Virus record (IMG/VR): IMGVR_UViG_3300045952_000124
Span: 1,531 to 65,530 of that record
Strand: one strand, 5' to 3'
Source: a virus
Taxonomy: Duplodnaviria > Caudoviricetes
Length of the DNA stretch: 64,000 nt
In this document: one piece after another, positions 23,399 to 64,000 of the stretch
How positions within the stretch are numbered: the first letter of the stretch is position 1
Layout of the letters: each line of letters opens with the position of its first letter
Program-made: the position numbers and the translations under genes
Notes under the pieces: model-generated
Databases searched by the model: none
The model's input: only the letters and a program-made list of their open reading frames with translations
What the model was told of the DNA's origin: nothing

Positions 23399-23597
23399 CC
23401 CAAGCCGACCTACGCTAACCCTGTAGGCGGACCGGACCACCGACCGGACCGTCTTGTGTGGAAAGCCTGCGGCGGCGGCGCTTTGGAGAGGGGCGTGGGA
23501 CCGCCGCAGGCAGGGGCAACGGGCAACAGACAGGGCAAGTTGATTGACACACCACATCTAACAGCGCGCAGGAACAACAGCGCGGGAGGAACATACA

Positions 23598-40247: not shown

Positions 40248-40290
40248 TGGTATACTGCGTCACATGCAGGACGTACGACACACGACACGA
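40248..40290 (+). promoter_or_regulatory. Extended -10 promoter with shared leader motif
   Basis: TGG-TATACT(40251) then GCAGGACGTACGACACACGACAC, similar to P6 and P8. Confidence 0.5.
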
Positions 40291-40309
40291 CTTGACAGGA
40301 GCGCACCAT

Positions 40310-40681
40310 ATGGCAACTAGAGCGCCAAACGCAGCGAACGCGCCGAACGCGCCGGGCGGACCGACCGGACCGGGCGCACCTGACCCGGCTAACCCGCCGC
40401 CGCCAAGCTACGCGGTCATTCTAGCGGGCAAGAGGTACAGGGTCGCGGGCGCGGTCCTGCTGGCTTACACGGAAGCGGCAGAGGAGCCGCAGTCGCGCCC
40501 GTCAAGCTACCTGTACCGGACGCAGCGAGACAACTACTTTCACGTACACCGGACGCCGAACGGCACGTATGAAGCGGGCGCGCTGCTGCCGCCGCAGGCG
40601 TTGAACGCCTATCTGCAGCACCTTGTTACGATGCTGCCGGAGCAGGCGGCGTTTCCGGGGCTTGTCATTGAGGAAGGTTGA
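40310..40681 (+). CDS. Hypothetical protein
   Basis: SD AGGAG; YLYRTQRDNYF motif. Confidence 0.55.
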   Translation: MATRAPNAANAPNAPGGPTGPGAPDPANPPPPSYAVILAGKRYRVAGAVLLAYTEAAEEPQSRPSSYLYRTQRDNYFHVHRTPNGTYEAGALLPPQALNAYLQHLVTMLPEQAAFPGLVIEEG

Positions 40682-45139: not shown

Positions 45140-46121
45140 GCGTAGTTGGACGCTAGACTTCTCAATGCCTCTGTCGCCGGAGCGCGACCGACCGAACCTT
45201 GCCCGCTCCGGCGTCAAGCGCGTCATGCTGCCGTTCGCTATCGCGGCGCGCCACCCTGATCAGGTCGCATGGCTAGGACAGAACGGCTACGCTGTAATCC
45301 TGCGTATGGAGCAGGAGAGCTATCACGCCGACCTGTCGTACACCAACGGGCGCATCGTGCCGACGCCGGGCGGCAAGTCGGAGCATGACAAAGCGGCAGA
45401 GGCATTGACGTACCTGCACCGGGCGGTCCGCGACGCTCCGATTGAGGGCGTCGCAATCGGAGTTGAGCCGGACCTTCCTAGACTGCCGTACTACAACTAT
45501 CGCGGTTGGCTCGATGATAAGGTCAACGGCGACGGCAGCGTATCGGCAGGAGCGAAGCGGCACAAGGTCTACTTCGCGACGATGCACCGGGCTATAAAGG
45601 GCGCCTTCCCGCAGATGCACACCATAAGCGGCGGGCTGTCTTGCCCGTTCCGGGCAGAGGGCGACATGCCTTATCCGGGCTACGTCGCGTGGCGGGACGA
45701 AGTTGCGGAAGTCTACTCCGAAGCGGACACCAACGCTTTCCACGCTTACACCTACAATGCTATCTCGCCCTGCCCGGACCAACTTCGCCTGCAGTTCATA
45801 GTCCAGTTCGGCGCAAGCATGTGGCACAAGCGGATAGACCTGTTGGAGCTAGGCGTCCTGTTTGAGCCGGAGAACGGAGTGCGGAAGCTTGGCCTAGAGT
45901 GGCAGCTACGCCGCATGCAGGCTTACATAGACTTCGCCAACTGGCTTGACCTGCCGTGGCAGCGCGACGTAGATCAGGACGGGCATCCATACAAGACGGG
46001 CGGCAGGGTCCGCCTGTACTCCCCATTCGTGAGCAACGGCGTGCCGTCCGCATGGCCCGAAGAATACCTTTTGGACCGCCCGGAAGTGTACGACCTGCTC
46101 CGCAGGCACGTAGACCAGTAA
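45132..46121 (+). CDS. Glycoside hydrolase-like TIM barrel (clan GH-A)
   Basis: VAIGVEPD (acid/base position), ISGGLS, ADTNAFHAY, IDLLELG (nucleophile position). Confidence 0.6.
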   Translation: MDKRSWTLDFSMPLSPERDRPNLARSGVKRVMLPFAIAARHPDQVAWLGQNGYAVILRMEQESYHADLSYTNGRIVPTPGGKSEHDKAAEALTYLHRAVRDAPIEGVAIGVEPDLPRLPYYNYRGWLDDKVNGDGSVSAGAKRHKVYFATMHRAIKGAFPQMHTISGGLSCPFRAEGDMPYPGYVAWRDEVAEVYSEADTNAFHAYTYNAISPCPDQLRLQFIVQFGASMWHKRIDLLELGVLFEPENGVRKLGLEWQLRRMQAYIDFANWLDLPWQRDVDQDGHPYKTGGRVRLYSPFVSNGVPSAWPEEYLLDRPEVYDLLRRHVDQ

Positions 46122-46124
46122 CCA

Positions 46125-46233
46125 CTGAGACGCGCTGAGAGCCATTCAGCCGCGTCAAGCGGTGGCAGAGCTATGTTTATAGCCATGCCCCTATTCTGAC
46201 GATTTCACGCACGATTTTAGCTACCATGTTCTA
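46125..46233 (+). repeat. Dispersed element copy C
   Basis: CTGAGACGCGCTGAGAGCCATTCAGCCGCGTCAA...CTATTCTGACGATTTC..GATTTTAG. Confidence 0.9.
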
Positions 46234-49527: not shown

Positions 49528-50200
49528 AACAGCGAAGCCGAAGCAGGCAGAGGAAGCGCAGGAGCAGGAGCAGGAGCGCGACCCATACGGACCCGGACCG
49601 AAAGAGTACACGTTGGAGGACGTGGCGTATTGGTGCTATCTCCCGGCGTCGCACGACCTGCCGACTGGCAAGATCGTGCAGTTGGGCATCAACAGGCTGC
49701 GGGTCGTAGGGGCGCAGATTGAGCTATGCAGCGTGGGCGTAGGCTCCGCGACCGCAAAGGCTTCCTCTGCCTGCGGCTATTACCCGCACGTCCGCATCTT
49801 CGCCTACGATTGGGCGGGCGCGCTCCGGCAACTACACCCCTCAACGCAGGTGAAGTACGCACGGGCAGTACCGCCCGGCGACGTGGTGCTTGCCCCGGTC
49901 GGAGAGGACGTTGGGTCGCACGGCGTAGGGGAGCCAATGAAGCGCGGCGGCTACGTCGTGCCGTCCGACGCGCTCCGCGACTGGATAGCCACACTGCCAA
50001 TCGTGCTGCATCGCTTTGAGGTTGACCGGACATACGACCCTTCGGCGCTGCCCGGCTACATCGGCGTCTCGGACGCCCTGCGGCAGCAGGTCGTGAGGCA
50101 GGCGACTTGGGCGTGCGACTTGGTAGACGGCGTGCTTGACCCGCCGAAGCCGACGATCTACCTCTCCGCCGACCTGCAGGAGCAGCCAGCGCCCTACTAA
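49517..50200 (+). CDS. Hypothetical protein
   Basis: SD AAGGAG; coupled. Confidence 0.6.
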   Translation: MASKTAKPKQAEEAQEQEQERDPYGPGPKEYTLEDVAYWCYLPASHDLPTGKIVQLGINRLRVVGAQIELCSVGVGSATAKASSACGYYPHVRIFAYDWAGALRQLHPSTQVKYARAVPPGDVVLAPVGEDVGSHGVGEPMKRGGYVVPSDALRDWIATLPIVLHRFEVDRTYDPSALPGYIGVSDALRQQVVRQATWACDLVDGVLDPPKPTIYLSADLQEQPAPY

Positions 50201-50363
50201 CGCCCAAAACGGCGCTCTGAGATGACACAGGGCGCGTCAGAATAGCCCTGCGTGTATGTTCGCCTGCGTGAACTACTGCAGGGCTTCTCTGTTGCCTGTC
50301 GTGCGCCGCCGCCGCCGCAGGCTCCGCGACCTGCGCCCGGCAGAGAGCCGGCCACGCGCCAAT

Positions 50364-50450
50364 ATTGGTGCGAATATTGGTAGCGGATTGGTCCCGAAAC
50401 AGGTTGATACCCCACGCAGGACTTGCTATAATGTCTTAGGTAGGACATAC
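50364..50450 (+). promoter_or_regulatory. Early-type promoter P3
   Basis: ATTGG at 50364/50376/50387, TTGATA-17-TATAAT(50427), TGTCTTAGGTAGGACATAC. Confidence 0.8.
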
Positions 50451-50500
50451 GGCAGGCACACAGCGAAGCAGGCGCGGATAGCGCCGGAAGGGACACGAAA

Positions 50501-50773
50501 ATGGATAAGCAGATTGAGGACGTAACGACGTTTGAGCAGATCGCGGACGGGCAGGTGTTGCATGAGGATTTAGGCGACTATGACGGGCGCTGGTGGCTTA
50601 TGCTTGAGCCGATTGTGCGCTTGAACGGAGTGGTCTACTTCCGGTCGGCGGTCGTATCTGAGGACTGCGAAGCGTACTTGGACCTGCCGCATCTGAACAC
50701 GAAAGAGAGCGCGGTCGCACTGGCCCCGCAGTACATCGCAGACTATGAGTGGAAGCACGGGCGACGCGGATAA
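50501..50773 (+). CDS. Hypothetical protein
   Basis: After P3 and pentaloop hairpin; SD GAAGGG. Confidence 0.65.
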   Translation: MDKQIEDVTTFEQIADGQVLHEDLGDYDGRWWLMLEPIVRLNGVVYFRSAVVSEDCEAYLDLPHLNTKESAVALAPQYIADYEWKHGRRG

Positions 50774-50847
50774 GAAGTCAACAGGCTCCGCAGGTCGGAG
50801 CCGCGAGAACACAAGCGGCGCGAACAGCGCCGGAAAGGGACACGAAA

Positions 50848-51270
50848 ATGAGCGAGAAGTTTTACGGCACGAACGGCACGATGTACACCGAAGTGGAGTG
50901 GGCAGGGCTTATGAAGCTAGCGAACGTTTTGGGCGGAGTTCTCGGAAGGATAACGGACGCCGCCGCCGCAGGCAGGTCGCACGACGCGCTTGACAGGCAG
51001 AGCATCGCCGCCCTGAACGCGATGCGCCGCTTGGAAGCTTCGGGCAAGGCACGCGCCGCCGAACACTCCTGCAACGCCTGCGTTGAGACGCCCGGCTGCT
51101 GGCGGCTAGACGGCAAGGAAGTAACCTGCGTGTGCTGCGACGGTCGCGGGTGGTACACACCGGAGCAGGAAGCGGAGCATCTGGATATGCTCCGCGAGAT
51201 GCAGGCGGAGCGCACGGCGGAGCGCCGGAACGAAGAAGCGCTGTACAAGTACGAATTGCCTGCCGACTGA
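50848..51270 (+). CDS. Hypothetical protein with CxxC..CxxCxGxG Zn motif
   Basis: Leader nearly identical to that of 50501. Confidence 0.65.
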   Translation: MSEKFYGTNGTMYTEVEWAGLMKLANVLGGVLGRITDAAAAGRSHDALDRQSIAALNAMRRLEASGKARAAEHSCNACVETPGCWRLDGKEVTCVCCDGRGWYTPEQEAEHLDMLREMQAERTAERRNEEALYKYELPAD

Positions 51271-51271
51271 T

Positions 51272-51360
51272 ATTGGTCGCAGATTGGTCCTGCGGACCGG
51301 GCAGATCGGCTTGACGCCCCTCCGCAGGACTTGCTATAATGTCGTAGGTAGGACATACGA
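51272..51360 (+). promoter_or_regulatory. Early-type promoter P4
   Basis: ATTGG at 51272/51283, TTGACG-18-TATAAT(51335), TGTCGTAGGTAGGACATAC. Confidence 0.8.
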
Positions 51361-51411
51361 CGGCGGCAACGCAAGAACACACCGGGCGAACAGCCCTGAA
51401 AGGAAAAGACA

Positions 51412-52182
51412 ATGACGAACGAAATGAGCAGCGACATGAGGAAGCGACAGCAGGTGCGGAGCGGTGGCAAGTATGCGAAGTATGACGTAACGTGTGAGTT
51501 GTGCGGCAGGGGCATAAATGAGGACACTATGGAGACGCCGAACGGGTTGTACTTCGCGACCGATGAGTTGGGCTTTGTACCCTGCATCTGCGAGAAGTGC
51601 ATCCCGGTGTTTGATTGGATGAAAGAGCCGGAAGCGGTCGCGTACCTGTTGAAGTACGGAGACGGCACGCAGAAGCCCGGCAAGAAGGCGGCGGATTGGG
51701 TGTTCGTCGCGGAGCCTGCGGTTGAGGCTCCTGCGGCGGCGGCTCCGGTTGAGGTTGAGGACATGCCTGCCCCTGAGAAGGGCGACACGTTTGAGTACAG
51801 GAACGCATACGCGGCGGCGCAGGCAGAGGCGCGGGCGCAGGTCGCAGCGATTGAGAAGCGCCGGGCGCACATGCTAGCCTGTGAGCGGCTTGTACACTTC
51901 GCCCGCGAAGCGGAGCAGGCAGCGCGAGACGCCGGGTTCTCTAACACAGCCGACGTGATGCACAAGGAATATGCGTTCGGCGTTACGATGCTGGCGAAGG
52001 CTATGGACGACCTGCACGCGCTAGGCGTGCCGATGAGCTTGATGTTAGACACGCAGGGGCTTGGCAAGGCTCCTGCGGCGGCTGCGCCCGGCTCCGGCTC
52101 CGCAGGTGCAGGTCGCGAGATGCCTGCAGGCTTCGGACCGATACGCACGATGAAGGTAGTTGAGCGAGAGGACGGCAGGTAG
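51412..52182 (+). CDS. Hypothetical protein with N-terminal Zn finger
   Basis: CELC...CEKC; SD AAAGGA. Confidence 0.65.
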   Translation: MTNEMSSDMRKRQQVRSGGKYAKYDVTCELCGRGINEDTMETPNGLYFATDELGFVPCICEKCIPVFDWMKEPEAVAYLLKYGDGTQKPGKKAADWVFVAEPAVEAPAAAAPVEVEDMPAPEKGDTFEYRNAYAAAQAEARAQVAAIEKRRAHMLACERLVHFAREAEQAARDAGFSNTADVMHKEYAFGVTMLAKAMDDLHALGVPMSLMLDTQGLGKAPAAAAPGSGSAGAGREMPAGFGPIRTMKVVEREDGR

Positions 52183-52410
52183 ATGAGCTACAAGACTTTT
52201 GCGGAATTGTGCGCGGACCGCGACGGCGAGAAGTACGCCGAGAAGCCGCGCACGTTCCGGCGAGGGCAGGCGGTCCGGTACGGCACGCTGCAGGGTAAGG
52301 TCCGCAGGTTGACCGGGCGCATGTTGACGATAGACTTGGACGGCGGAGCCGGGCGGATACAGGCAAGGATAAGCGACTGCGTAGCGGTCGGAGAGGACGG
52401 CACAGCATGA
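52183..52410 (+). CDS. Small SH3/KOW-like beta protein (tentative)
   Basis: FRRGQAVRY...GKVRR pattern. Confidence 0.5.
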   Translation: MSYKTFAELCADRDGEKYAEKPRTFRRGQAVRYGTLQGKVRRLTGRMLTIDLDGGAGRIQARISDCVAVGEDGTA

Positions 52411-52706
52411 AGGCATTTACTGAGCAGCAGAAGCAACTAGCGTTTGAGCTGGTCAAGACGGAGAGCGCCCGCAACGTCGCAGGCAACAAGGCGCGCAAGC
52501 GCCCGGCGCAGGACGCGGAATGGCACAGCCTGCACGGGTCGGTCGCACGGCTTCTGGACACAGAGGAAGCTTTGGAGAAGCGCCTGTTGGACCTGCTGCG
52601 GCAGGACGGCGCAGGAGCCTCCGCGAATTACTACCTGAGCGAGTTGAAGATGATCGGGCGCGACCGGATGCGGCGTGAGGGTTCGCCCTACGTTTGGGCG
52701 AAGTAG
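52407..52706 (+). CDS. Hypothetical protein
   Basis: ATGA coupling. Confidence 0.55.
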   Translation: MKAFTEQQKQLAFELVKTESARNVAGNKARKRPAQDAEWHSLHGSVARLLDTEEALEKRLLDLLRQDGAGASANYYLSELKMIGRDRMRREGSPYVWAK

Positions 52707-52753
52707 TCTCCCGGCACAGTATTGCGCGAACAGCGCGGAAAGGACGGCACACG

Positions 52754-53356
52754 ATGAGGGACGAAGGCATGCACACACACTTGGCAGTAACAGTCAGGGC
52801 GGGCGCGGAGTTGACCGACGTAAAGACCGGGGCGCGGCTCCGGCTTGCGGAGCCGATTGAGACGGCAGTGATAGCAGTAACGGCTACGACCTGCTTCGCC
52901 TATGACAGCCGCATATACGCAGTCTCGGCGGAGTACGTGACGATAGACGGCATATGGAGCGGAGCCTTTGCGCGGGCGGCGGCGGAGCGGCACGCGGCAG
53001 GCATGGACCGGATCGGCTTGAAGACGGCACGATACCCGGCTCCGCAAGGGGAGCCTCTGCAGGCTCCGACCTGCCCGGCATGCGGAGCGGCGCTTGACCC
53101 CTCTGTGCGGCACACCTGCGGCGGCACGTTGGCGGAGTTGGAAGCCCTGCAGCATGAACACATGGCAGGACAGGTCCGGGTCCGGGCAAGGGCGAACGCC
53201 GTCGCGGAGCGCATCGCAGAGGGCAGGGCGGCGGGCGTTGAGCCGACGATCTGCAAGTCATGCAAGGCGGAGTGTCCTGCCGGGGCGACGATGTGTTGGT
53301 GCTGCCGCAACTGGACGGACGGCATGATCCGGGGCATGACGAACGATAGCGACTGA
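52754..53356 (+). CDS. Hypothetical protein with Zn ribbons
   Basis: CPACG, CKSC..C..CWCC; hairpin plus SD leader. Confidence 0.6.
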   Translation: MRDEGMHTHLAVTVRAGAELTDVKTGARLRLAEPIETAVIAVTATTCFAYDSRIYAVSAEYVTIDGIWSGAFARAAAERHAAGMDRIGLKTARYPAPQGEPLQAPTCPACGAALDPSVRHTCGGTLAELEALQHEHMAGQVRVRARANAVAERIAEGRAAGVEPTICKSCKAECPAGATMCWCCRNWTDGMIRGMTNDSD

Positions 53357-53478
53357 TGCGATTGCGAACCTTCCTGCGGCTTGCCGGAGTAGCGTTGGTG
53401 CTGCTCCGCTTGCCGTTTCTTTGGTTCTTCTGCGGCTTCGCGGGTGGCCTGTTATTCGCCCTTTTGCTGCTGCAATAG
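53356..53478 (+). CDS. 40-aa hydrophobic membrane peptide (absent from the ORF track)
   Basis: TGATG coupling; MRLRTFLRLAGVALVLLRLPFLWFFCGFAGGLLFALLLLQ. Confidence 0.5.
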   Translation: MRLRTFLRLAGVALVLLRLPFLWFFCGFAGGLLFALLLLQ

Positions 53479-53617
53479 CGCTCCGCAGAGCCGCCGCAGG
53501 ACACGCCCTGAGACGCGCTGAGATGACACAGGACGCATCAATACCCCTCTGTGGCTATGTATGCAGCCGTGCCGCTATTCTGACGATTTTGTGCGTGATT
53601 TTAGAACGTGGTTGCTA
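53472..53617 (+). repeat. Dispersed element copy D (hybrid of the two subtypes)
   Basis: Shares GCAATA.CGCTCCGCAGAGCCGCCGCAGG and GCTATTCTGACGATTT.GTGCGTGAT.TTAGAAC with copy A, and CTGAGATGACACAGG with the short copies. Confidence 0.9.
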
Positions 53618-53676
53618 CATCTGCTCCGCTCCTGCGGACCTGCAGCAGCGACGCCGCCCGGCTCCGGCAGGCGCAA

Positions 53677-53770
53677 ATTGGGCGTAGATTGGCGGCAGAT
53701 TGGGCGCGGAGCGGCTTGACCCTGCTCCGCCGACCATGCTATAATTGTCGTAGGTCGGACATACAACACA
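53677..53770 (+). promoter_or_regulatory. Early-type promoter P5
   Basis: ATTGG at 53677/53688/53699, TTGACC-18-TATAAT(53740), TGTCGTAGGTCGGACATAC. Confidence 0.8.
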
Positions 53771-53801
53771 CGGCGCGGATAGCGCAGAAGGAGCAAACGG
53801 G

Positions 53802-54341
53802 ATGGACAGTCCTGAGCGGACAATCGAATTGACGAACGGCAAGCAGGTCGCTATTGACCCTGCGGATTACGACTTGGTATCGGGGCTGCGCTGGTACGAA
53901 GTGCGCGGGTATGCTGCGGCGAGAGTACGGGGCGGCGGAGTAGTGCTGATGCACGTCTACATAATGACGGGCGGCGACTACAATGGGGCGCGGCAAGAGT
54001 CGGTCGTAGATCACAAGGACGGCGACAGGCTCCGCAATACCCGCGACAATCTGCGTTGGGCGACATACAGGCAGAACGGCTACAACAAAGGCAAGGCGTC
54101 CGGCAAGTCTAGCGCGTACAAGGGCGTGAGCAAGTGTTCGGACCGCGACAGGTGGCTTGCCTGCGTACACGTCGGCAATAAGAGCATAACGCTTGGGCGC
54201 TTCGCTACTGAGCTAGAAGCGGCGGCGGCGTACAATGAGGCGGCTTGCGCCCTGTTCGGCAAGTGGGCGCGGTTGAACAACCTGCGGGCGTCGGAGCCGT
54301 GCTTGGTTCCCGCAGATGAGATTGACGACCTGCCGTACTAA
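53802..54341 (+). CDS. HNH-AP2 homing endonuclease
   Basis: MHVYIM, VVDHKDGDRLRNTRDNLR (HNH) plus SSAYKGVS..W.A....LGRFATELEAAAAYNEAA..LFG (AP2). Confidence 0.9.
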   Translation: MDSPERTIELTNGKQVAIDPADYDLVSGLRWYEVRGYAAARVRGGGVVLMHVYIMTGGDYNGARQESVVDHKDGDRLRNTRDNLRWATYRQNGYNKGKASGKSSAYKGVSKCSDRDRWLACVHVGNKSITLGRFATELEAAAAYNEAACALFGKWARLNNLRASEPCLVPADEIDDLPY

Positions 54342-54387
54342 TCGGGCGGCAGGCTTGAACGTGCGAACAGCACAAGGAGGCTATACA

Positions 54388-54711
54388 ATGGCTACAATAC
54401 CCGGACTGGCCCTATTGGACACGTTCTGCGAAGCGGCGATGAAAGCCTGCGTCCTGCAGGCGCGGAGCCGCAACTTGGAGGTAGACGCGGAGTTGGTGAT
54501 CGGTCCTCTGCGCGTGCAGACTGCGGAGCAGTACAATAACCTGTTGGCGGACGTGAAGCACGCCGCCGCCGCAGGCGGAGTAAGCGTTGAGCGCGCTTTG
54601 GAGATGCTGCCGGGCGACATGCTCCGCGACCTGACTAACAGTCGCGCTAACGTGGCGGGCGTGCAGGCTTTGATAGCGGCGGGCTACATTCCCGCCGAAG
54701 GAGGACAGTAG
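54388..54711 (+). CDS. Hypothetical protein
   Basis: Hairpin plus AAGGAGG SD. Confidence 0.65.
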   Translation: MATIPGLALLDTFCEAAMKACVLQARSRNLEVDAELVIGPLRVQTAEQYNNLLADVKHAAAAGGVSVERALEMLPGDMLRDLTNSRANVAGVQALIAAGYIPAEGGQ

Positions 54712-54713
54712 AC

Positions 54714-55190
54714 ATGGCGGCAAAGAAGGCTTGGGGCGACGCGATTGCCCCGGACAGTGGGCAGGCGGCTATGGGGCTGCAGTCGGAGTTGACGATACCG
54801 CAGAAGGTCGTAATTGACAACGCGCTTGCGCTTCTGAAAGAGCCAAGCAACTTCTGCAAGGGACGCCCGGCAGTTGACATACACGGGCGGCGCGTCTCTC
54901 CGACCGACCGCGAAGCCGTGCGTTGGGACATTCTAGGAGCGCTCCGCAGGGCAGCAACTATGCCGCCCGGCGCGACCGAGAACGACTTGAAGGCGGTTGA
55001 GGCTGTGCTGTACGAGAAGATACGGGCGAATGAGGCGTACGCGAAGTGGGACCTGCTAGGTTTGAACGACCACAGGGGTTACTACTTCGTCGTGTCTCTC
55101 CTGCAGGCGGTCCGCGACGGCTCCGCGTGGCAAGTGCCGGATACCGCGCAGGACCGCCGCAACGCCCGGAAGAAGGCGGCAGCGAAATGA
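54714..55190 (+). CDS. DUF6197-like phage protein
   Basis: ALALL..P..FCKG..A.D..G..V.P....AVRWDILGALRRAA...LND. Confidence 0.55.
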   Translation: MAAKKAWGDAIAPDSGQAAMGLQSELTIPQKVVIDNALALLKEPSNFCKGRPAVDIHGRRVSPTDREAVRWDILGALRRAATMPPGATENDLKAVEAVLYEKIRANEAYAKWDLLGLNDHRGYYFVVSLLQAVRDGSAWQVPDTAQDRRNARKKAAAK

Positions 55191-55588
55191 GGACAGGGGC
55201 GATACCCGCGCAGGACTACGAAGGGGAGCAGGATTGGCAATCCGTTCTCCCGCGACCGGGCTTCTGCCGGGTAAAAGAGGCGTTTCTGTGGAGTACCGCT
55301 AAATCGCTGTTTGTGCCGTGGCATGCGTTCGGCTTCGTTTGGGAGTTGCGGCTTGAATGCGGGCGCGTGCATGATACGTATCGTCCGCGCTACGTGCCGG
55401 AGCGCGAGAGCAAGCACCGGAGCGTCGCCCACATACGCGCCGCAGGTGACGTGCTGCCGCCGCCAGCGCAGGTGAAATGCTCCTGCGGATTGAACCCGGA
55501 CTATGGACGCTGCAAAGGCTGCGGTCGCAAGCTAAAGAACCCGTACTACTGCGACGGCTGCGGGCGGAAAAAGGACCCGGCGAAGTAG
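55187..55588 (+). CDS. Hypothetical protein with C-terminal Zn ribbon
   Basis: ATGA coupling; LECG, CKGC..CDGC. Confidence 0.55.
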   Translation: MRTGAIPAQDYEGEQDWQSVLPRPGFCRVKEAFLWSTAKSLFVPWHAFGFVWELRLECGRVHDTYRPRYVPERESKHRSVAHIRAAGDVLPPPAQVKCSCGLNPDYGRCKGCGRKLKNPYYCDGCGRKKDPAK

Positions 55589-55589
55589 C

Positions 55590-55650
55590 TTGACACACCT
55601 GCGGCGGCGGCGTATACTTCGCAGGTCGGACACACGACACACGACACGGA
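55590..55650 (+). promoter_or_regulatory. Promoter P6
   Basis: TTGACA-17-TATACT then TCGCAGGTCGGACACACGACACACG; near-identical to P8. Confidence 0.8.
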
Positions 55651-55670
55651 CAGGAAGGGGGGTGATAGGC

Positions 55671-55844
55671 ATGAAGGAACGGGCGATGTACTGGCTTCGG
55701 CAGGCGGCATGGGCTGCGATATGCGTCTCGGCTGCGTTGCTGGTGCTGTTCGGTTTAGCGCGCCTGATGTACATCGGCTTGCCTGTGGCGGCGGATTGGC
55801 TCCGGGCGTTCTGCATAGTGCAGGACGGATGCCCCGGACACTAG
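55671..55844 (+). CDS. Small membrane protein
   Basis: SD GGGGGTGA; TM helix. Confidence 0.55.
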   Translation: MKERAMYWLRQAAWAAICVSAALLVLFGLARLMYIGLPVAADWLRAFCIVQDGCPGH

Positions 55845-55907
55845 CGGAAAGATGCGTCCTAGTGGCTCTCAGGAGCCGGGGCGCGGAGCGAATTGGAGGC
55901 AATACAC

Positions 55908-56135
55908 ATGGCTAGATACGTGCCTATAACAGAAGCGGAGCGCATGCGGCGTGCGTCGGAGTTGATAACAGAGACGACGAACGCTTACGAGAGGTTTATG
56001 CTCCTGTCCACAGATGAGGCGTTGAACGCTAGCAAGCGGGCGGACATGTTGATAGAAGCGCGGAAGTGCTTGGAGCTTCTAGGCAAGCTTACGGGCGCGC
56101 TTCCGGTCGCGCCGACCGCAGAGGAGTACAACTAA
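55908..56135 (+). CDS. Hypothetical protein
   Basis: SD GGAGG. Confidence 0.6.
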   Translation: MARYVPITEAERMRRASELITETTNAYERFMLLSTDEALNASKRADMLIEARKCLELLGKLTGALPVAPTAEEYN

Positions 56136-57088
56136 TGAGCGGCATTGGAGCGATACCCGTCAAGCGCGGCTGCGGCACGCGGCAGGCGGGCGGAGTGTAT
56201 TGGGAGTTGGGTATAGGTCCGGGCGGCGCGCCTGCAGAGGCGTTTCTGGTAGACGCTCCGCAGCTTCTACCGGAAGGGTACGTGCTACCAAACCGGGGCG
56301 TCGGCATACTGGAGCGGGGCGCAGTAACGCACTTGGTAGACCGGATCGGGCTGTCGGATTACCCTAACACGCTGGACTACTTTTTGGAGGGCAAGGAGTA
56401 CGGCTACAGCCGCCGTCTCCCGGCGACGCTTGACTACAGCGTGCTAGGAGAAGCGTCGCGGCTCCTGCCCGTGCATGACCGCGCGTTCCTGCACAACTAT
56501 GCGGACCTGTGCGCGGCGAACGTGACGCTGCCCTCTGTAATCTGCCCGAAGGGGTTGCCGCACCACCCGCTATGGTGCGCTATCGGCAGGGCGGAGCAGG
56601 TCGGTTGGCAGGAGTACGGAATAGAATTGGAGCCGCCGCAGGAGTTGAGGTCGTTCGGCACGATTGAGCGGGTCGGAGTAATCCTGCCGACGCAGCGCGT
56701 GAACCCTTTGTACGTGCGTGAGGACGCGCTTGCGGCGTCGGCACGCGGAGAGGCGTACGAACACTACCACATCGAAGTCGTGCCGCCTGAACCGATGTGC
56801 TGCTCCGCTTGGTGGAGCCTGCTTGACCCGGACACCTGCGAACCTGCGCCGCAGGTACACGGTTGGGGCGACGGCTACAGCAAGCGGAAAATGCCGTCGT
56901 TTGAATACAACGCCTACAAGGTTCCGGGCGACTTCTCTCCGAAGTACGCCCCGGCGATATTTATGAGCCTGCCTGCTTCGCGGATCGTAATCGTCCGCGA
57001 CGAAGACGACCCGCAGTACGCGGAGAAGGCGGAGCGCATAGACCGCATGCTTGACGGGCGGCTACACTTTACGGAGGTAGATCAGTGA
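56135..57088 (+). CDS. Conserved-looking hypothetical protein (RGCG.R..GGVY N-terminus)
   Basis: TAATG coupling; YPN..D...EG...G.SRRLP motif. Confidence 0.65.
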   Translation: MSGIGAIPVKRGCGTRQAGGVYWELGIGPGGAPAEAFLVDAPQLLPEGYVLPNRGVGILERGAVTHLVDRIGLSDYPNTLDYFLEGKEYGYSRRLPATLDYSVLGEASRLLPVHDRAFLHNYADLCAANVTLPSVICPKGLPHHPLWCAIGRAEQVGWQEYGIELEPPQELRSFGTIERVGVILPTQRVNPLYVREDALAASARGEAYEHYHIEVVPPEPMCCSAWWSLLDPDTCEPAPQVHGWGDGYSKRKMPSFEYNAYKVPGDFSPKYAPAIFMSLPASRIVIVRDEDDPQYAEKAERIDRMLDGRLHFTEVDQ

Positions 57089-58584
57089 GTGACAATCGGA
57101 CGAACACGAACAGGAAGCAGGGTGAGGGGCAGGCTGCACAATCGGCGCTAGACCTGTCTCTCCTGCCGGGCAAGATGCCCGAACACATAGCGAACGCGAA
57201 CATACCGCTCAACGTGCTGCCGCCCGATGCGGAGTTGATAGGACCGGAGCCGACGCCGGGCTTGATGCAGAGCCTTCGCGACTTCGGCGGCGTGCTTGTG
57301 CCGCTCCTGCTGATAGCGGAAGGGCAGCTACAGGGACCAACCGGATACATCGTAGTGGACGGCACGCGGCGCGTGAAGGGTATGCGGCGCTGGCAGCGCG
57401 AATGGGCAGAGGAAGCGGAGCGCATAGAAGCGAAGCACGGGCAGGTAGACGTTGACGCCGGAGAGGTCGCGGACTTCCGGGCGTCGCGCCCGCCCCAAAC
57501 TGTTCCGGCGCGCATATTCCCGCCGGGTTGGAGCCGGGCAGAGGTGCTATCGGTCGTAGCGAATGAGGAGCGGTCGGAGAACCTGCCCCGGACGCTTGAC
57601 AACCTGCGGCGGCTCCTGCAGGCAGGGGTTGACCCGGAAGAAGTGCGGCGCTCCTGCGGGCTTGACAAGACGCAGTACAAACAGGTCGCGCAGTTGCTAG
57701 CCTTGAACGCGGTACTCCTGCAGGCGTTGATAGACGGCAAGCTTCCGGCAGGGCGGGCGCGTGAGATAGCGAGAATGCCCGTCGCCCGGCAGGATAAGCT
57801 TGCGGCGATGTACGAAGCAGAGGGCAAGCTATCGGCAGAGGACGTGCGAGAAGTGCGGTCGGTTGGATCTGCGGCGGCGGCGGCGCTAATCCCTGACGAC
57901 GTGTTCAACACGCCCGGCGCTGATGCGTCGGCTCCGGCATGGGGCGCTATGGGGTTCACTCCGGGCGCTGTGTTGACGGCGCAGGGCATGGCGACAATCG
58001 TAGCCGTACCTGCCGGGCAGGAGCCTTCAATACCCTACGTGTACAGGGAAGTAGACACCGAACACTGGCTTGCGAAGGTCAACAGGCTTATAGCGGAAGC
58101 GCTTGACGCGACGCCTGCCGATGCTCCGCACGCGCACCAGCTAATCGCATCGCTTGCGCGGTCGGCAGAGGAAGCGGACTTCCTGCTGACGCTGTACGCG
58201 CACGGTGAGCCTAGCGGTCCTACTCCGCATGAGCAGCTAATGTCTGAGCTTGCGGCGGCGGAAGCGGAAGACCTGCGGCGGCAGTCGGAGCAGGAGCCGG
58301 AGCGGAAGAAGAAGCCCAAGAAGGAACGGCGGGCGCTATCGTCCGAGACGTACGACAACATCCCGGCTGATAGCCCGTTCTCTACGTCCGCCGATCCGAC
58401 TACGCTCCCAACAGAAGTCGCGGAGCAGGTCGGCGTTGAAGACCTGCAGGTTGACGACTTCGCGTCGCTGGCGAAGGGCGTGCAGTCGGAGCGGGTCGCG
58501 CCCGCCGAACCTGTATGGAGGCGAAAGAAGCCTGCAGAGGCGGCAGGAGTAGCCCCTGAGATGACACAGGGCGCGTCAGAATAG
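57085..58584 (+). CDS. ParB/Spo0J-like protein with HTH
   Basis: SLRDFGGVLVPLLL, YIVVDGTRRVKG, ANEERSEN, HTH-like EEVRRSCGLDKTQYKQ, GKLPAGRAREIARM. Confidence 0.75.
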   Translation: MSDNRTNTNRKQGEGQAAQSALDLSLLPGKMPEHIANANIPLNVLPPDAELIGPEPTPGLMQSLRDFGGVLVPLLLIAEGQLQGPTGYIVVDGTRRVKGMRRWQREWAEEAERIEAKHGQVDVDAGEVADFRASRPPQTVPARIFPPGWSRAEVLSVVANEERSENLPRTLDNLRRLLQAGVDPEEVRRSCGLDKTQYKQVAQLLALNAVLLQALIDGKLPAGRAREIARMPVARQDKLAAMYEAEGKLSAEDVREVRSVGSAAAAALIPDDVFNTPGADASAPAWGAMGFTPGAVLTAQGMATIVAVPAGQEPSIPYVYREVDTEHWLAKVNRLIAEALDATPADAPHAHQLIASLARSAEEADFLLTLYAHGEPSGPTPHEQLMSELAAAEAEDLRRQSEQEPERKKKPKKERRALSSETYDNIPADSPFSTSADPTTLPTEVAEQVGVEDLQVDDFASLAKGVQSERVAPAEPVWRRKKPAEAAGVAPEMTQGASE

Positions 58585-58663
58585 GTCGGCGCGTATGTTT
58601 GTATGCGTGAGGGGCGGGCGGCTGTCTGAGCGCCCCTCAACAACACGAAAGGACGAAACACGA

Positions 58664-59491
58664 ATGGACGGCATAAGCGAACACTTTGGCGATGTAGACA
58701 TGGACGAAGCAACGGATAACGGCTATCAGGGCGGCTCCGCCCGGAATTACGGCGATTGGTCGGCGCACGACCTGCTAGCCCGGTCGGTTGAGCTGCAGGA
58801 GCAGCAGGTCGCGCAGTTGGCGCGGTCGGCGGCGGCTCAGGAGCGGATCGCGATACAGGAGACGCGCAAGAGCAACTATCTCGGCGGGATACTCCTGCTC
58901 CTGCACTCTGCGGCGGCGGCGCATCTGGACCCGATAGTAACCGACCGCATACCGTTCGGCTTTGACGACTATGAGGAGCCGGGCGACGGTCCGGGCGGAG
59001 CCGGAGCAGGTGCAGGGGCAGCAGCCGCCGCAGGGCGGGAAGGACCGCAGGCTTCGGTGTCAATCGGGGCGCGCATCAACGAAGACGGCACAATGACGCC
59101 GATAGCTTGCCCGCACAACCCACTTGGACCGGAAGCTTGCGCGCTCTGCGCGGCAGCGTTTGAGGCTATGGCCCCGATGATGCAGGACGCGGCGGCGGAC
59201 CTGCGGGCGCGGGCTGCTTCGGCAACGCAGGCGTACCAAGAGTACGTCGCAAGCGTCGGACCGGGGCAACCGCTAATGACCCTGCAGGAATGGAACCGCC
59301 AAAACGCGGCGGCGTCTCCGGCTCCGCGCCGGGCAGGTGGCAGACCGCCGATCACTCCGACCGAAGCCGGGTGGCTATCCGACCTGTACGCGCAGGGACC
59401 CAAGCAGGCGCAGGAAGCGCACGACCGCCGCATGGCAGCGAAGCAGGACGAACACGCCGAGACACAGGAGCCTTTGCCGCCGCAGGCATAA
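58664..59491 (+). CDS. Hypothetical protein
   Basis: SD AAAGGA. Confidence 0.6.
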   Translation: MDGISEHFGDVDMDEATDNGYQGGSARNYGDWSAHDLLARSVELQEQQVAQLARSAAAQERIAIQETRKSNYLGGILLLLHSAAAAHLDPIVTDRIPFGFDDYEEPGDGPGGAGAGAGAAAAAGREGPQASVSIGARINEDGTMTPIACPHNPLGPEACALCAAAFEAMAPMMQDAAADLRARAASATQAYQEYVASVGPGQPLMTLQEWNRQNAAASPAPRRAGGRPPITPTEAGWLSDLYAQGPKQAQEAHDRRMAAKQDEHAETQEPLPPQA

Positions 59492-59570
59492 ATTGGTAGC
59501 GGATTGGCGGCGGAGCGGCTTGACGGCGGCTCCGCCTGCCGCTATAATGTCTGTAGTAGGACATACGACG
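59492..59570 (+). promoter_or_regulatory. Early-type promoter P7
   Basis: ATTGG at 59492/59503, TTGACG-17-TATAAT(59543), TGTCTGTAGTAGGACATAC. Confidence 0.8.
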
Positions 59571-59607
59571 CGGGCATTGACCCGCTACACAGAAAGGTAG
59601 GTCGGAC

Positions 59608-59997
59608 ATGACGAACATAGGCAAGCTTGAAGGCGACACGTTTGGGAGCAGGCGCAGGCAGGCGGAAGAAAGCCGCTCCGCTACGTCTGCCTTCGCGCAG
59701 AAGCAACGCGACCGGGCGCAGGCTGTGCTTGACGGGTACACGCCGGAGCAGGTCGAGAAGCATCGGCGGTTGGGGCAGGTGCGTGAGGACGCGGCGCAGT
59801 TGGGGCAGGCGGCGTTCGTCCTGCAGAAGCGCGGCAAGGAGCGGCTTGGGCTGCAGGTCCGCCGCGAACACCTGTTGGCGCTTGCGGAGCGCGACGCGCT
59901 GCAAGAGGAATTGGAGCGCACGACGGGCGGCGTGTGGGGCGTGCAGGCGTTGGGCGACGCGATACTCCGGTATGACCGGATTATGATCGAAGGGTAA
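59608..59997 (+). CDS. Hypothetical protein
   Basis: SD AAAGG; GTAGGTCGGACATG box overlaps the start codon. Confidence 0.6.
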   Translation: MTNIGKLEGDTFGSRRRQAEESRSATSAFAQKQRDRAQAVLDGYTPEQVEKHRRLGQVREDAAQLGQAAFVLQKRGKERLGLQVRREHLLALAERDALQEELERTTGGVWGVQALGDAILRYDRIMIEG

Positions 59998-60050
59998 TCG
60001 GCGGCAGGTCGGATTGATTGCGCGAACAGCGCAGAAAGGCAGGCAATACA

Positions 60051-60983
60051 ATGGCAATCGTATACACACTGGAGAACGGCGACAAGTGGGCGGCATTGAA
60101 GGCTCCGAAGCAGTACGTCGCGGAGCGGGCGGCAAGGTATCCGGGCGGCAACCTGCGCCTGCAGGTAGAATGGGACGGCAATTGGCGGCGCATATCGCAC
60201 AAGCATGACTGCCCGCACTACGTTGGGTACGGCGCGCTGCCTGACTATTACGACATAAACCGCCTGTACCCGGACTGCGTGAACTACGACAGTCAGCAGG
60301 CAGAGAACGGTCCTGCCTATGGCTGCGGTCCGTTCGGTCCGACCGTGCGCCTGATAGCGTGGGAAGGCTGCGTGCTTGAGGAGCGCGAGAGCAACTTCCT
60401 AGACGATAGCGACTTCTACGCCTACGTGTGGGACGCGGAGCGCGGCTGCACAATGTCGCATGAGTACGCTACTACCCGCTTCGGCGGCGGCGGTTGGTGT
60501 TCGGTAGACGCTACTCCTGAAGTCAGGGCGGCGGCGGCGGAGTACACGAAGGGGCAACTTCTGAGCATACTGCAGCAGGAGAACGAATTGCAGGCGACCT
60601 ATCGGCAGGTCGGTCGTATCGTCCGCTTGAACATGGACGGTACGCTGCCCGTCCGCGACAAGGCGGCACGCGCAGAGTTGGAAAGCTACCGGGGCGCGCT
60701 TGGCGTGATCCGCTGGCAGGGCGAACGCAAGTATGGGCAGAGCCGATGGGCTCCGACCTACGTGCGGATCGGCGTTGAGATACTTGCGGACGAATTGCTC
60801 CTGCAGGGCGCTGGCTACGTGTTTATGGACCCGGACAATGTTGAGGTCGCGTTCCCTGATATGTACTTGGTCCCTGCGGAGCAGTTGGAGCGCGCAGCCG
60901 ATAACGGCAAGGGACGCCCGTCCGCTCCTGCCGGGCTTATTATGAACCGGGTGGCTAGCAGGACGGGAATGGTATACGTCTAA
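60051..60983 (+). CDS. Hypothetical phage protein
   Basis: DDSDFYA.VWD...EYATTRFGGGG...VDATPEV motif; hairpin plus SD leader. Confidence 0.7.
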   Translation: MAIVYTLENGDKWAALKAPKQYVAERAARYPGGNLRLQVEWDGNWRRISHKHDCPHYVGYGALPDYYDINRLYPDCVNYDSQQAENGPAYGCGPFGPTVRLIAWEGCVLEERESNFLDDSDFYAYVWDAERGCTMSHEYATTRFGGGGWCSVDATPEVRAAAAEYTKGQLLSILQQENELQATYRQVGRIVRLNMDGTLPVRDKAARAELESYRGALGVIRWQGERKYGQSRWAPTYVRIGVEILADELLLQGAGYVFMDPDNVEVAFPDMYLVPAEQLERAADNGKGRPSAPAGLIMNRVASRTGMVYV

Positions 60984-61090
60984 CAGCGTGCGGGCGCTCC
61001 TGAGATGACACAGGAGCGCCGATCCGGGTGGGGCGTGTGTGTTTGTACCTGTGGGTACGCGCCGCCCGGCAGAAAGGAGCAGGTAACAGC

Positions 61091-61369
61091 ATGAACCTAG
61101 AAGAAGCGAGACGACAAACGATTGCGGTACGGCGGATCACACGGCTCCGCATCGCGGCGACGAAGATAGATCGGCTCCGCGTGCAGGTGCTAGATGTGAC
61201 TATGGAGACGAAGGATTACGCGGCGCGTGAATTCGTCGCGAAGGCGGCGGACTTTTTGAGGCGGGCGCAAGAGGAGTTGGAGCAGACGGCGACGCACGAA
61301 GCGCACAACCTGCAGGAGTTGCAGGAAGTGGCGCGGGTCAACGCGATGCGCGACAGGGGTGAGCTATGA
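61091..61369 (+). CDS. Small coiled-coil protein
   Basis: SD AAAGGAG. Confidence 0.6.
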   Translation: MNLEEARRQTIAVRRITRLRIAATKIDRLRVQVLDVTMETKDYAAREFVAKAADFLRRAQEELEQTATHEAHNLQELQEVARVNAMRDRGEL

Positions 61370-61965
61370 GCACGACGGGCGCGCCCGGCTCCGGCAGCAC
61401 GGGCAAAGGCTCCGCGAAGGTGCAGGTCAAGCGGCTGCTAGCGGAAGTTGAGATAGCGGTCGCAGGTCCGGTTGACATGGACGGGACGAAGTACCGCCCG
61501 GTCCCGTTCACCTACGACGCGATAGGCTACTGGCGGCAGGCGCAGTACACAAAGATACCAGTGCCGCCGACCGACTTCTATTCGTACCTGCGCGCAAAGA
61601 AGCTGTGCTTTGAGTGCTGCGGTCGCGGGCAGAGGAACACGGTACAGCGCCCGGTGTTCGGTCGCAACACGGCGAACAAGAACGGGCTTGACTACCTGTA
61701 CACGCCCTGCGCGACCTGCGGCGGCAGTGGGAAGCTACAGCCGGAGCAGGAAGAAGGTTGGTGGGCCAAGCACTTCGCCTACAAACAGGCATTGGAGCAG
61801 GAAGCGGCAAGGCACGCGGCGCAACCGCCGCCGCAGGCTCCGCCGATGAGACAGATCATTATCGCTCCTGCGGTTGACCGGATGCTTGACCGGGTAGACC
61901 CTGAAACCGGAGAGATACGGGAGCCGGAAGAAGCAGAAGAAGCAGAAGAAGGGGAGGAAGAATAG
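61366..61965 (+). CDS. DnaJ-type Zn-finger (CxxCxGxG) protein
   Basis: CFECCGRG and CATCGGSG; C-terminal VDPETGEI. Confidence 0.6.
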   Translation: MSTTGAPGSGSTGKGSAKVQVKRLLAEVEIAVAGPVDMDGTKYRPVPFTYDAIGYWRQAQYTKIPVPPTDFYSYLRAKKLCFECCGRGQRNTVQRPVFGRNTANKNGLDYLYTPCATCGGSGKLQPEQEEGWWAKHFAYKQALEQEAARHAAQPPPQAPPMRQIIIAPAVDRMLDRVDPETGEIREPEEAEEAEEGEEE

Positions 61966-61967
61966 AC

Positions 61968-62252
61968 ATGGATAACACGCAGAAGGCGCGCCCGGACCCG
62001 GCGCAGGCGAAGCAGGTAAGCATGGACGCGGCAGAGAAGCTAGTCGCCCTTGAAGCGGCAGGGCGGGCGCTCCGCGATGCGCTGGTAGGCTGTGAGGAAG
62101 CAGTGGAGCGCGACCGCTTGAAGTCGGAGCTAACTAAGGTCCGGCAAGAGATACTTGAAGCGTCGGCGGTCGCACGCAACGTGCCTCTGCCCCAAACGAC
62201 CGGACCGTACCACAAGCGGCAGGGGCGCACGGGGCAGGGCGGAGAGAAGTAG
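61968..62252 (+). CDS. Hypothetical protein
   Basis: SD GGAGG. Confidence 0.55.
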   Translation: MDNTQKARPDPAQAKQVSMDAAEKLVALEAAGRALRDALVGCEEAVERDRLKSELTKVRQEILEASAVARNVPLPQTTGPYHKRQGRTGQGGEK

Positions 62253-62281: not shown

Positions 62282-62345
62282 TTGACACACCTGCGGCGGC
62301 GGCGGTATACTTCGCAGGTAGGACACACGACACACGGCACACGAC
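62282..62345 (+). promoter_or_regulatory. Promoter P8
   Basis: TTGACA-18-TATACT then TCGCAGGTAGGACACACGACACACG. Confidence 0.8.
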
Positions 62346-62376
62346 ACGGAACAGAACGGAAGGGGGATGCACGGAT

Positions 62377-62766: not shown

Positions 62767-62844
62767 TCCCTATGATAGCAGGCGTCGTGCCGCCTGTCAA
62801 CGGGTAATCTGCAAGAGGCAAGTATTCTACAGGAGTATTGCTCT

Positions 62845-63479: not shown

Positions 63480-64000
63480 ATGACAGTAGAAACTTGGCGG
63501 GCTTTACGGGCGCTCCTGCAGCGACCGATTGCGTTTCACAGGGCGCTAGCAGAATTGGCGGGCAGCACGGCGGGCGGCGTGTTCCTGTCGCAAGCGCTTT
63601 ACTGGCAGGAGCGGTCAACCGACGATGCAGGTTGGTACTGGAAAACGCAGGCGGAATGGTACGACGAAACGATGTTGACCCGGTCGGAGCAGGAGCGGGC
63701 GCGGGCGCGGCTCCGCGAATTGGGCGTGCTGCATGAGAAGAAGGCAGGCACGCCCGCGAAGCTTTACTACCGGGTAGACTTTGAGCGGTTGTACGACCTG
63801 CTTGGCAGTCCGCAGGCGGACCCGCAAACAAGGATGCTGGATCGTGCAGACTTGGGCGTGCAGAACGGACAAGCAAGCCTGTCAAATCCTGCAACCTCTT
63901 ACAATACAGAGACTACAAGCATAGACTACGCAGAGACTACACTTGCGGCAGGGGCGCGAGAGCCTGCGGCGGCGGCTGCACCTGCACCTGCGGCGGCTGC
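63480..64000 (+). CDS. Phage replication initiator (O-like wHTH), truncated by the window end; not in the ORF track
   Basis: My translation from ATG 63480 (SD GGAGG): RPIAFHRALAELAGSTAGGVFLSQALYW...GWYWKTQAEWYDETMLTRSEQERARARL...GTPAKLYYRVD...TETT. Confidence 0.8.
   Translation, partial: MTVETWRALRALLQRPIAFHRALAELAGSTAGGVFLSQALYWQERSTDDAGWYWKTQAEWYDETMLTRSEQERARARLRELGVLHEKKAGTPAKLYYRVDFERLYDLLGSPQADPQTRMLDRADLGVQNGQASLSNPATSYNTETTSIDYAETTLAAGAREPAAAAAPAPAAA

Follow-up and report, generated by a model that had tools for sequence, protein, structure and literature searches.

The phage genome and its putative early region

The window analysed here is 64,000 bp long and comprises bases 1531-65530 of the 65,530-bp IMG/VR virus record IMGVR_UViG_3300045952_000124 (G+C 62%), which represents an uncultured phage from soil metagenomes; positions are those of the window unless stated otherwise. 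Between 50.4 and 60.1 kb, seven genes are each preceded by a short hairpin with a G-R-A-Y-A pentaloop that lies directly against the Shine-Dalgarno (SD) sequence, and this hairpin (copies hp1 to hp7) is the subject of the present study. All coding-type open reading frames (ORFs) of the window are on the + strand. A gpA-type large terminase, a portal, a major capsid protein, a tape measure of 1,606 amino acids (aa) and Dit are encoded, and the phage therefore looks siphovirus-like. The genome carries a 127-bp direct terminal repeat (genome positions 1-127 and 65404-65530; window 63874-64000). The completeness given by CheckV for the record is 77%, but the terminal repeat suggests a whole genome instead.

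Over the last part of the window, beginning at about 50.2 kb, six strong sigma-70-like + strand promoters (50404, 51311, 53716, 55590, 59520 and 62282) drive short operons of small proteins, nearly all of them without a recognizable family. From these promoters only, we infer that this region is 'early'.

Inventory and rarity of the hairpins

All seven hairpins reported in the initial annotation were found where it had placed them (Table 1). A scan of the window for G-R-A-Y-A loops on perfect stems gave 16 cases on the + strand and three on the - strand with stems of at least 3 bp, and nine and one, respectively, with stems of at least 4 bp. When the loop had, in addition, to be closed by C-G, hp1 to hp7 were the only ones on the + strand, and a single one was left on the - strand (2967-2979, inside a + strand gene). 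These eight hairpins on both strands compare with 0.70 ± 0.87 (maximum 4) in 300 dinucleotide-preserving shuffles. For the 9-nt core GCGRAYAGC, 17 occurrences were counted, whereas 5.3 ± 2.6 are expected and none of 100 shuffles reached 17. The + strand has 275 pentaloop hairpins whose stems measure at least 4 bp, and no other loop sequence is as frequent among them as GAACA. A covariance model (R1) built from hp1 to hp7 and run over the whole genome returned these copies at 35.9-43.9 bits; the next match, a possible degenerate relative in the structural region, scored 19.6 bits, and all others 12.3 bits or less.

Table 1. Hairpins, the genes that follow them and the promoters of their operons (bits, score under model R1; p, closing-pair probability in native context)
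Feature	Position	Strand	Sequence or content	Context	SD	Bits	p
hp1	50471-50485	+	GGCGC-GGATA-GCGCC	P1 leader	GGAAGGG, directly after	39.5	0.87
hp1 downstream gene	50501-50773 (ATG 50501)	+	90 aa, no family				
hp2	50816-50832	+	CGGCGC-GAACA-GCGCCG	intercistronic, upstream TAA 42 nt before	GGAAAGGG	41.5	0.99
hp2 downstream gene	50848-51270 (ATG 50848)	+	140 aa, CxxCxGxG zinc-finger-like				
hp3	51384-51396	+	GGGC-GAACA-GCCC (compensated G-C pair)	P2 leader	GAAAGGA	43.9	1.00
hp3 downstream gene	51412-52182 (ATG 51412)	+	256 aa				
hp4	52724-52736	+	GCGC-GAACA-GCGC	intercistronic, TAG 17 nt before	GGAAAGGA	40.6	0.89
hp4, extended	52722-52738	+	two further U.G pairs				
hp4 downstream gene	52754-53356 (ATG 52754)	+	200 aa, Cys-rich				
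hp5	53773-53785	+	GCGC-GGATA-GCGC	P3 leader	AGAAGGAG	37.0	0.95
hp5 downstream gene	53802-54341 (ATG 53802)	+	HNH-AP2 homing-type endonuclease	own promoter P3			
hp6	54361-54373	+	GTGC-GAACA-GCAC (compensated U-A pair)	intercistronic, TAA 19 nt before	AAGGAGG	35.9	0.99
hp6 downstream gene	54388-54711 (ATG 54388)	+	107 aa				
hp7	60019-60033	+	TGCGC-GAACA-GCGCA	intercistronic, TAA 21 nt before	GAAAGG	42.9	0.98
hp7, extended	60018-60034	+	one further U.G pair				
hp7 downstream gene	60051-60983 (ATG 60051)	+	310 aa				
Possible degenerate relative	23565-23584	+	CGCGC-AGGAACAACA-GCGCG; 10-nt loop containing GAACA	structural region; ATG 23598	GGGAGG	19.6 (E 1.6e-4)	
Promoter P1	50376-50432 (50404)	+	TTGATA-17-TATAAT with TG; upstream ATTGG-N6-ATTGG	drives hp1 and hp2			
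Promoter P2	51272-51340 (51311)	+	TTGACG-18-TATAAT with TG; ATTGG-N6-ATTGG	drives hp3 and hp4			
Promoter P3	53677-53745 (53716)	+	TTGACC-18-TATAAT with TG; three ATTGG at 11-nt spacing	drives hp5 and hp6			
Promoter P5	59492-59548 (59520)	+	TTGACG-17-TATAAT; ATTGG-N6-ATTGG	second gene carries hp7			

Conservation of stem, loop and position

The 13-nt core, G[C/G/U]GC-G[A/G]A[C/U]A-GC[G/C/A]C, shows a mean pairwise identity of 85% among the seven copies, whereas the flanks (30 nt on the 5' side and the opening 30 nt of the coding sequence) show 27%, which equals the random expectation of 0.27. The core has therefore been selected or has spread as a unit, and is not the trace of a recent duplication of the region; extra similarity in the flanks was found for hp1/hp2 and hp6/hp7. 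The G-R-A-Y-A loop and its C-G closing pair had been described as fixed, and both are indeed kept in all seven copies. The loop exists in two forms, GAACA in five copies and GGAUA in two (hp1 and hp5, whose genes are both the first after a promoter).

All 28 of the 28 cells of the core stem are paired. The two pairs adjoining the loop and the fourth pair are invariant; at the third pair, counted from the loop, five copies have C-G, one has G-C and one has U-A. The stem compensation claimed initially is thus present as two mirrored changes, but it is thin, since only this third pair varies. Among 500 shuffles the share of paired cells was reached by six and the covariation score by nine; taken as a whole this control convinces only moderately. 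The extension pairs of hp4 and hp7 include U.G, which favors a reading at the RNA level because such positions are mismatches in DNA or on the other strand. Two loop forms, invariant top two pairs and a compensated third pair together make up the pattern of a sequence-specific recognition of the hairpin tip, and not that of a mere structural plug.

In all seven copies the stem ends 0-3 nt before AAGG and 14-17 nt before the start codon, which is ATG in every case and opens a coding-type ORF; the position just before an AAGG-type SD, as first noted, therefore holds throughout. The SD itself is distinct: a GAAAGG-like form is present in 6/7 hairpin genes against 10/77 other genes, and a GGAG/GAGG form in 2/7 against 59/77, and so the conserved unit consists of the hairpin plus the SD. 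Folding in native context gave closing-pair probabilities of 0.87-1.00 and SD regions unpaired at 0.61-0.93, and the hairpin was recovered in the minimum free energy or centroid structure of all seven copies. When the 5' arm was barred from pairing, the mean accessibility of the SD fell from about 0.75 to 0.64, with a drop in six copies and a reversed effect in hp7. The hairpin is a discrete, oriented, structure-preserving element of the mRNA, non-random in occurrence and fixed beside the SD.

Distribution over genes, operons and promoters

Counts of independent gene starts are based on our own gene calls between 50.2 and 63.3 kb. In this region 14 genes have an upstream gap of their own, and the hairpin is found in seven of them, including all six between 50.4 and 54.4 kb. 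It is absent from all nine genes of the region that overlap the preceding gene or follow it within 2 nt (52183, 52407, 53356, 54714, 55187, 56135, 57085, 61366 and 61968). Of the seven copies, three belong to promoter leaders, and the other four stand between cistrons, at a distance of 17-42 nt from the preceding stop codon.

The seven copies all fall within four operons whose promoters (P1, P2, P3 and P5) carry ATTGG-N6-ATTGG. This repeat has five matches in the window against 0.03 expected, all of them at these four promoters, and the hairpin therefore co-marks one promoter class. In the P5 operon, the gene that comes first (59608) has another kind of hairpin in its leader. The promoters with a TATACT box at 55590 and 62282 are without ATTGG repeats, have CA-rich leaders and are followed by no hairpin of this kind. 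The hairpin thus occurs only in the operons of one promoter class and only where ribosomes start afresh. The regulon proposed in the initial annotation is borne out in so far as the distribution is regulon-like, with seven genes in four operons of one promoter class, each hairpin next to the SD.

Three further features of these promoters were observed. First, the ATTGG direct repeats, at 11-12 nt spacing, lie just 5' of the -35 box (50364-50391, 51272-51287, 53677-53703 and 59482-59507); judging from this arrangement they are likely to be a transcription-factor array or an UP-like element that defines the class. Second, a class with the form TTGACACACCTGCGGCGGCGGCG-TATACT has long CA-rich, G-poor leaders (GGACACACGACACACGACACGG) and is found at 55590-55670, 62282-62376 and about 40253-40310. 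Third, an initial transcribed sequence, GTAGGT(A/C)GGACA(T/C)AC, follows the -10 box directly at 46355, 50436, 51344, 53750, 55621 and 62314 (six matches against 0.02 expected), and in three of these six GTA-GGACA-TAC could form a 3-bp mini-hairpin with a G-R-A-Y-A loop.

A putative translational operator

We propose that the hairpin is the mRNA operator of a trans-acting RNA-binding regulator of translation, most likely one encoded by the phage, and assign this proposal a probability of roughly 0.4. The element would consist of a C-G closed G+C stem of 4-6 bp with a G-N-R-N-A pentaloop (GAACA or GGAUA), fused to a GAAAGG-type SD. The loop and the two uppermost base pairs would be what a putative regulator reads; from there it would occlude or open the adjoining SD and so control whether the 30S subunit can enter. 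In the ATTGG operons, the immediate-early genes might in this way be switched jointly after transcription, with a RegA-like or Com-like logic. In the T4 RegA regulon, the gp43 operator and the Mu Com-mom system, phage proteins bind mRNA at or beside the SD and repress or activate the translation of early genes; RegA sites, however, are not known to be hairpins. These systems are a model for our proposal in logic and not in sequence. An operator would explain the fixed loop amid drifting flanks, the fusion to a special SD, and the presence of the hairpin at fresh ribosome starts together with its absence at closely abutting or overlapping genes. That a protein reads the hairpin, that the phage encodes this protein, and the direction of its effect are what we infer from these patterns.

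The loop sequences are consistent with this proposal. According to published structural accounts, a GNRNA pentaloop takes up a fold like that of a GNRA tetraloop, its fourth base being turned outwards (PMC12550061, PMC9830547), and the turned-out base contacts protein in the boxB-N and CRISPR RNA complexes described there (PMC12550061). The GNRNA-type families solved so far, as compiled in one of these sources, include CGYAYAG, the family of the CRISPR repeat bound by Csy4, and KGARYAV, with a GAACA loop among its members (PMC9830547). By sequence, both C-GAACA-G and C-GGAUA-G fit this pentaloop class.

Several results weigh against an operator with a protein reader. Unrelated hairpins stand 5' of the SD at the independent starts 58664, 59608, 61091 and 46424 (the last behind a copy of the P3 promoter), which would point to a generic structural role. 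The covariation consists of two events in seven paralogous copies from one phage, and the number of pairs with double changes was reached by 218 of the 500 shuffles, so that this count is not exceptional. No RNA-binding family was found among the early-region proteins with Pfam and PHROGs, and the early proteins of 129, 133 and 75 aa matched nothing in the PDB sequences below E 0.1, the best match being LSm4 at E 0.16 for the 75-aa protein. An Atlas look-up of the basic 133-aa protein (55187-55588), which ends in two zinc ribbons, gave only zinc ribbons, with scores below 0.9.

As to possible readers, the 133-aa zinc-ribbon protein is a candidate nucleic-acid binder from its sequence. With it, the other basic early proteins, of 75 aa (52183), 99 aa (52407), 158 aa (54714) and 129 aa (59608), are the foremost candidates. 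As regards the ASCH protein suggested initially as a binder, no ASCH domain was found among the 84 window proteins scanned against Pfam. The 129-aa product of the gene at 59608, the first in the P5 operon, is rich in Arg over a stretch at its N terminus, and in this we presume a resemblance to N; its sequence gave no PDB match below E 1.9 and none to the solved N peptides. No N-type antiterminator family appeared among the Pfam or PHROG matches of the window proteins. The phage also encodes helix-turn-helix (HTH) and ParB-like proteins. The genes downstream of the hairpins encode orphans throughout, apart from the homing endonuclease. DnaJ-like CxxCxGxG zinc-finger motifs were observed in two early proteins (50848-51270 and 61366-61965).

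Should a reader exist, the hairpin plus GAAAGG might be the operator of a new family of GNRNA-reading phage RNA-binding proteins and, with the ATTGG promoters, one layer of a two-layer immediate-early tag that acts on transcription and on translation; we offer this suggestion tentatively and consider it rather unlikely as a whole. The system is a compact test case of whether phages run post-transcriptional regulons through private hairpin tags, and a binder, if it exists, would form with the hairpin a small orthogonal RNA-protein tool comparable to boxB-N or Csy4.

Alternative explanations

The main rival is an intrinsic cis element without a dedicated binder, that is, a stable GNRNA-capped hairpin that shields mRNA segments from 5'-end-dependent decay, insulates the SD and might stack on the SD/anti-SD helix. 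It is to be taken seriously because other independent early starts carry unrelated hairpins at the same place, so that most such starts have some hairpin 5' of the SD; all told we regard it as possible, if somewhat unlikely. It agrees with the high folding probabilities and with the loss of SD accessibility on barring the 5' arm, an effect that is, however, small and reversed in hp7. The stems abut or overlap the first purines of the SD, and pairing of GAAAGG with a presumed CCUUUC 16S tail of the host would reach the base of the hairpin. However, a stabilizer or insulator needs neither the fixed loop nor the invariant top pairs, and yet the core is conserved at 85% in random flanks; moreover, stems of 4 bp (-4.3 to -6.6 kcal/mol) are weak barriers. 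A surrogate host for these initiation regions would be one with a CCUCCUUUCU 16S tail.

A second alternative, which we judge improbable, is a processing signal: a Csy4/Cas6-like endoribonuclease would cut at the 3' base of the hairpin and release monocistronic messages that begin at the SD. The copies between cistrons are placed exactly so, next to the SD, and the geometry is that described for Csy4 substrates, a C-G closed G-Y-A-Y-A/GNRNA pentaloop on a short GC stem (PMC9830547). However, three copies lie in primary leaders, where a cut has no obvious use, and the only nuclease families that Pfam and PHROGs showed among the window proteins are HNH and RNase H, with nothing Cas6-like.

The inverted repeat GCGC-N5-GCGC could instead act in DNA, as an operator or 'stoperator'-like site for a phage DNA-binding protein. 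Such a site would suit a short, intergenic repeat in one orientation, like the stoperators that were contrasted with the repeated motifs of cluster K mycobacteriophages in the report on these phages (PMC3203893), and the HTH and ParB-like proteins would be at hand to bind it. The asymmetric spacer is, however, the best-conserved part, changes in one half-site are mirrored in the other in two of two cases, and the extension pairs are U.G. The distance is constant to the SD and ATG and not to promoters, which are lacking near four of the seven copies, and we consider a DNA site quite improbable.

Even less credence is given to a recombination linker without any RNA function, in which hairpin plus SD would be a PeSL-like joint for swapping orphan early genes between phages. 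Orphans or a homing endonuclease do follow every copy, hp1/hp2 and hp6/hp7 share similarity beyond the core, and the genome is rich in repeated regulatory cassettes. Nevertheless, 13-25 nt is short for homologous exchange and a joint in DNA needs no compensated pairing; a linker role could also coexist with a function in RNA.

The weakest alternative, and in our view a most improbable one, is the lambda-type nut site proposed initially, a boxB hairpin bound by an N-like Arg-rich antiterminator such as the 129-aa protein might be. The boxB loop is closed by a U-A pair, whereas that of the phage hairpins is closed by C-G. With YGCTCTTTA, which we take to be the boxA consensus, and at most one mismatch, 14 matches were found in the window against 20.4 expected; those on the + strand, at 21744 and 56133 only, are in no leader and near no hairpin. 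A nut site would be expected once per operon, promoter-proximal and before terminators, but here three operons have two copies each, four copies are intercistronic, all are fused to the SD, no terminator lies systematically downstream, and no N-like protein was recognized among the window proteins. The antitermination reading is accordingly not supported, and of the claimed boxB likeness the loop remains, as both loop forms fit the G-N-R-N-A class of lambda boxB. The likeness to the boxB-N systems of lambda and P22 extends to the short stem, the presence in early phage transcripts and membership of a loop class that phage proteins read, as far as these sources describe it (PMC12550061, PMC9830547).

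Comparison with known systems

The nearest described counterpart, by our comparison, is the start-associated sequence (SAS) of cluster K mycobacteriophages, to which the phage element would add a loop of the boxB/Csy4 type. With its 13 bp (GGGATAGGAGCCC), the SAS includes the SD and lies 3-7 bp from the start codon; RNA pairing of its extended form (ESAS) is without support according to the authors, who see its function probably in translation initiation (PMC3203893). Both are repeated short motifs in one orientation, near mostly ATG starts of unrelated families of non-structural genes, as reported for the SAS (PMC3203893). The seven copies in the present phage are all on the coding strand between 50.4 and 60.1 kb, before non-structural genes that all start with ATG. 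Unlike the SAS, however, the phage element is of another sequence, lies 5' of the SD, forms a hairpin whose pairs are compensated, and keeps 14-17 nt between its end and the ATG.

The repeat hairpin of Csy4 (Cas6f), CGYAYAG, resembles the phage element in its C-G closed G-x-A-Y-A pentaloop and short GC stem, and the protein that recognizes it in the structural account is specific for sequence and shape and cuts it at the 3' base (PMC9830547). The phage, in contrast, has neither array nor cas genes, and its loops are GAACA/GGAUA and not GUAUA/GCACA. A CRISPR array was rejected as an explanation, since the copies are 346-5,658 nt apart and each stands before a gene, and no cas family was found in the window. 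The T4-type PeSL cassettes likewise join a repeated sigma-70-like promoter, a stem-loop and an SD before orphan early genes, and their stem-loops are reported to overlap or flank the promoter and to act as terminators (PMC2839356). A terminator of this kind was also rejected for the phage hairpins, which have stems of 4-6 bp and no + strand U tail, lie next to the SD and in four of seven cases lack a promoter. Motifs repeated at gene starts, such as the SAS and the PeSL, are known in phage early genes, and the present one is unusually clear-cut among them.

Three further candidates were discarded. One is a minus-strand terminator: a scan flagged hp2 on that strand, but stems of this length and such poor tails do not suffice for one. 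Another is a hairpin promoter of the N4 type, for which a giant RNA polymerase is lacking, the largest protein being the tape measure. The last is a CsrA/RsmA site: target hairpins of these proteins typically hold GGA in the loop, which is present in only two of the seven loops, the other five being GAACA.

Relatives of the phage and the motif elsewhere

A megablast of 50000-62000 against the phage collection gave no relative, no related locus was found in IMG/VR with the 499-aa ParB-like protein or the terminase, and homologue searches with the early proteins of 310 and 158 aa returned only themselves. For the terminase, 16 relatives with 38-48% identity were found on contigs from Logan, ENA and JGI, one of them on a 64-kb ENA contig and another on a contig of 22.5 kb. 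When 15 of these relatives were aligned with the terminase of the phage and the alignment was searched against IMG/VR, best-segment identities among the best 80 of 151 loci were at most 39%, and at most 32% where most of the protein was covered; in genome contigs the same search gave one locus at 28%. Two soil-run contig sets contained the same phage only, without variants at the hairpins. Against Rfam there was no match in the window at the gathering score, and 50000-60500 at E up to 5 gave two unrelated sub-threshold matches.

In IMG/VR, GCGCGAACAGCGCNGAAAGG was found at five loci with two distinct sequences, and GCGAACAGCNNNGAAAGG at 77 loci on 77 contigs with 65 distinct contexts. A stem of at least 4 bp was present in nine of these contexts, and four of the nine had a start codon and ORF against 13 of the 56 stemless ones, which is not significant. 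Five IMG/VR records with a single match each were searched with model R1; every one of them yielded one strong copy, and none a regulon. The pattern hairpin-N14-18-ATG gave at least 120 matches in IMG/VR, dominated by one conserved coding family and with an SD-like spacer in four of the 120 listed, and is uninformative. A motif scan of metagenomes also gave at least 120 matches; among the matches listed most lie in GC-rich coding DNA, and a few are intergenic cases of hairpin, SD and ATG (L213/L257, L249/L251/L276, L263 and L253), for which the search pattern itself selects. No second phage with several copies of the hairpin was found among the matches listed in the IMG/VR and metagenome motif scans, which are at chance level or self-selected.

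Two of the metagenome loci, L213 (match at 876) and L257 (match at 105), are diverged homologues of one small gene starting MYYQ..NRETGKLEL. Each has a terminator, a promoter-like sequence, an A/C-rich leader, the hairpin GCGC-GAACA-GCGC in identical form, GGAAAGG and ATG, a layout that matches that of the present phage, although it was selected by the pattern.

Other repeated and promoter-like elements

Apart from the hairpin, an element of about 55 nt starting CTGAGATGACACAGGGCGCGTCAG exists in four copies at operon ends (3734-3788, 50217-50271, 53518-53572 and 58556-58610), and the copy at 58556 overlaps the final codons of the gene that encodes the 499-aa ParB-like protein. A terminator or attenuator function is possible for this element. 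An intergenic cassette of about 100 nt (repeat families D10 and D20) exists in three copies (9204-9304, 46120-46220 and 53503-53604), two of which stand directly 5' of the near-identical promoters 46339 and 53734 (97% over 36 nt). On the minus strand, the only strong promoter-like site is TTGACA-17-TATCAT with TG at 62772-62800, which could be the source of an antisense or divergent transcript.

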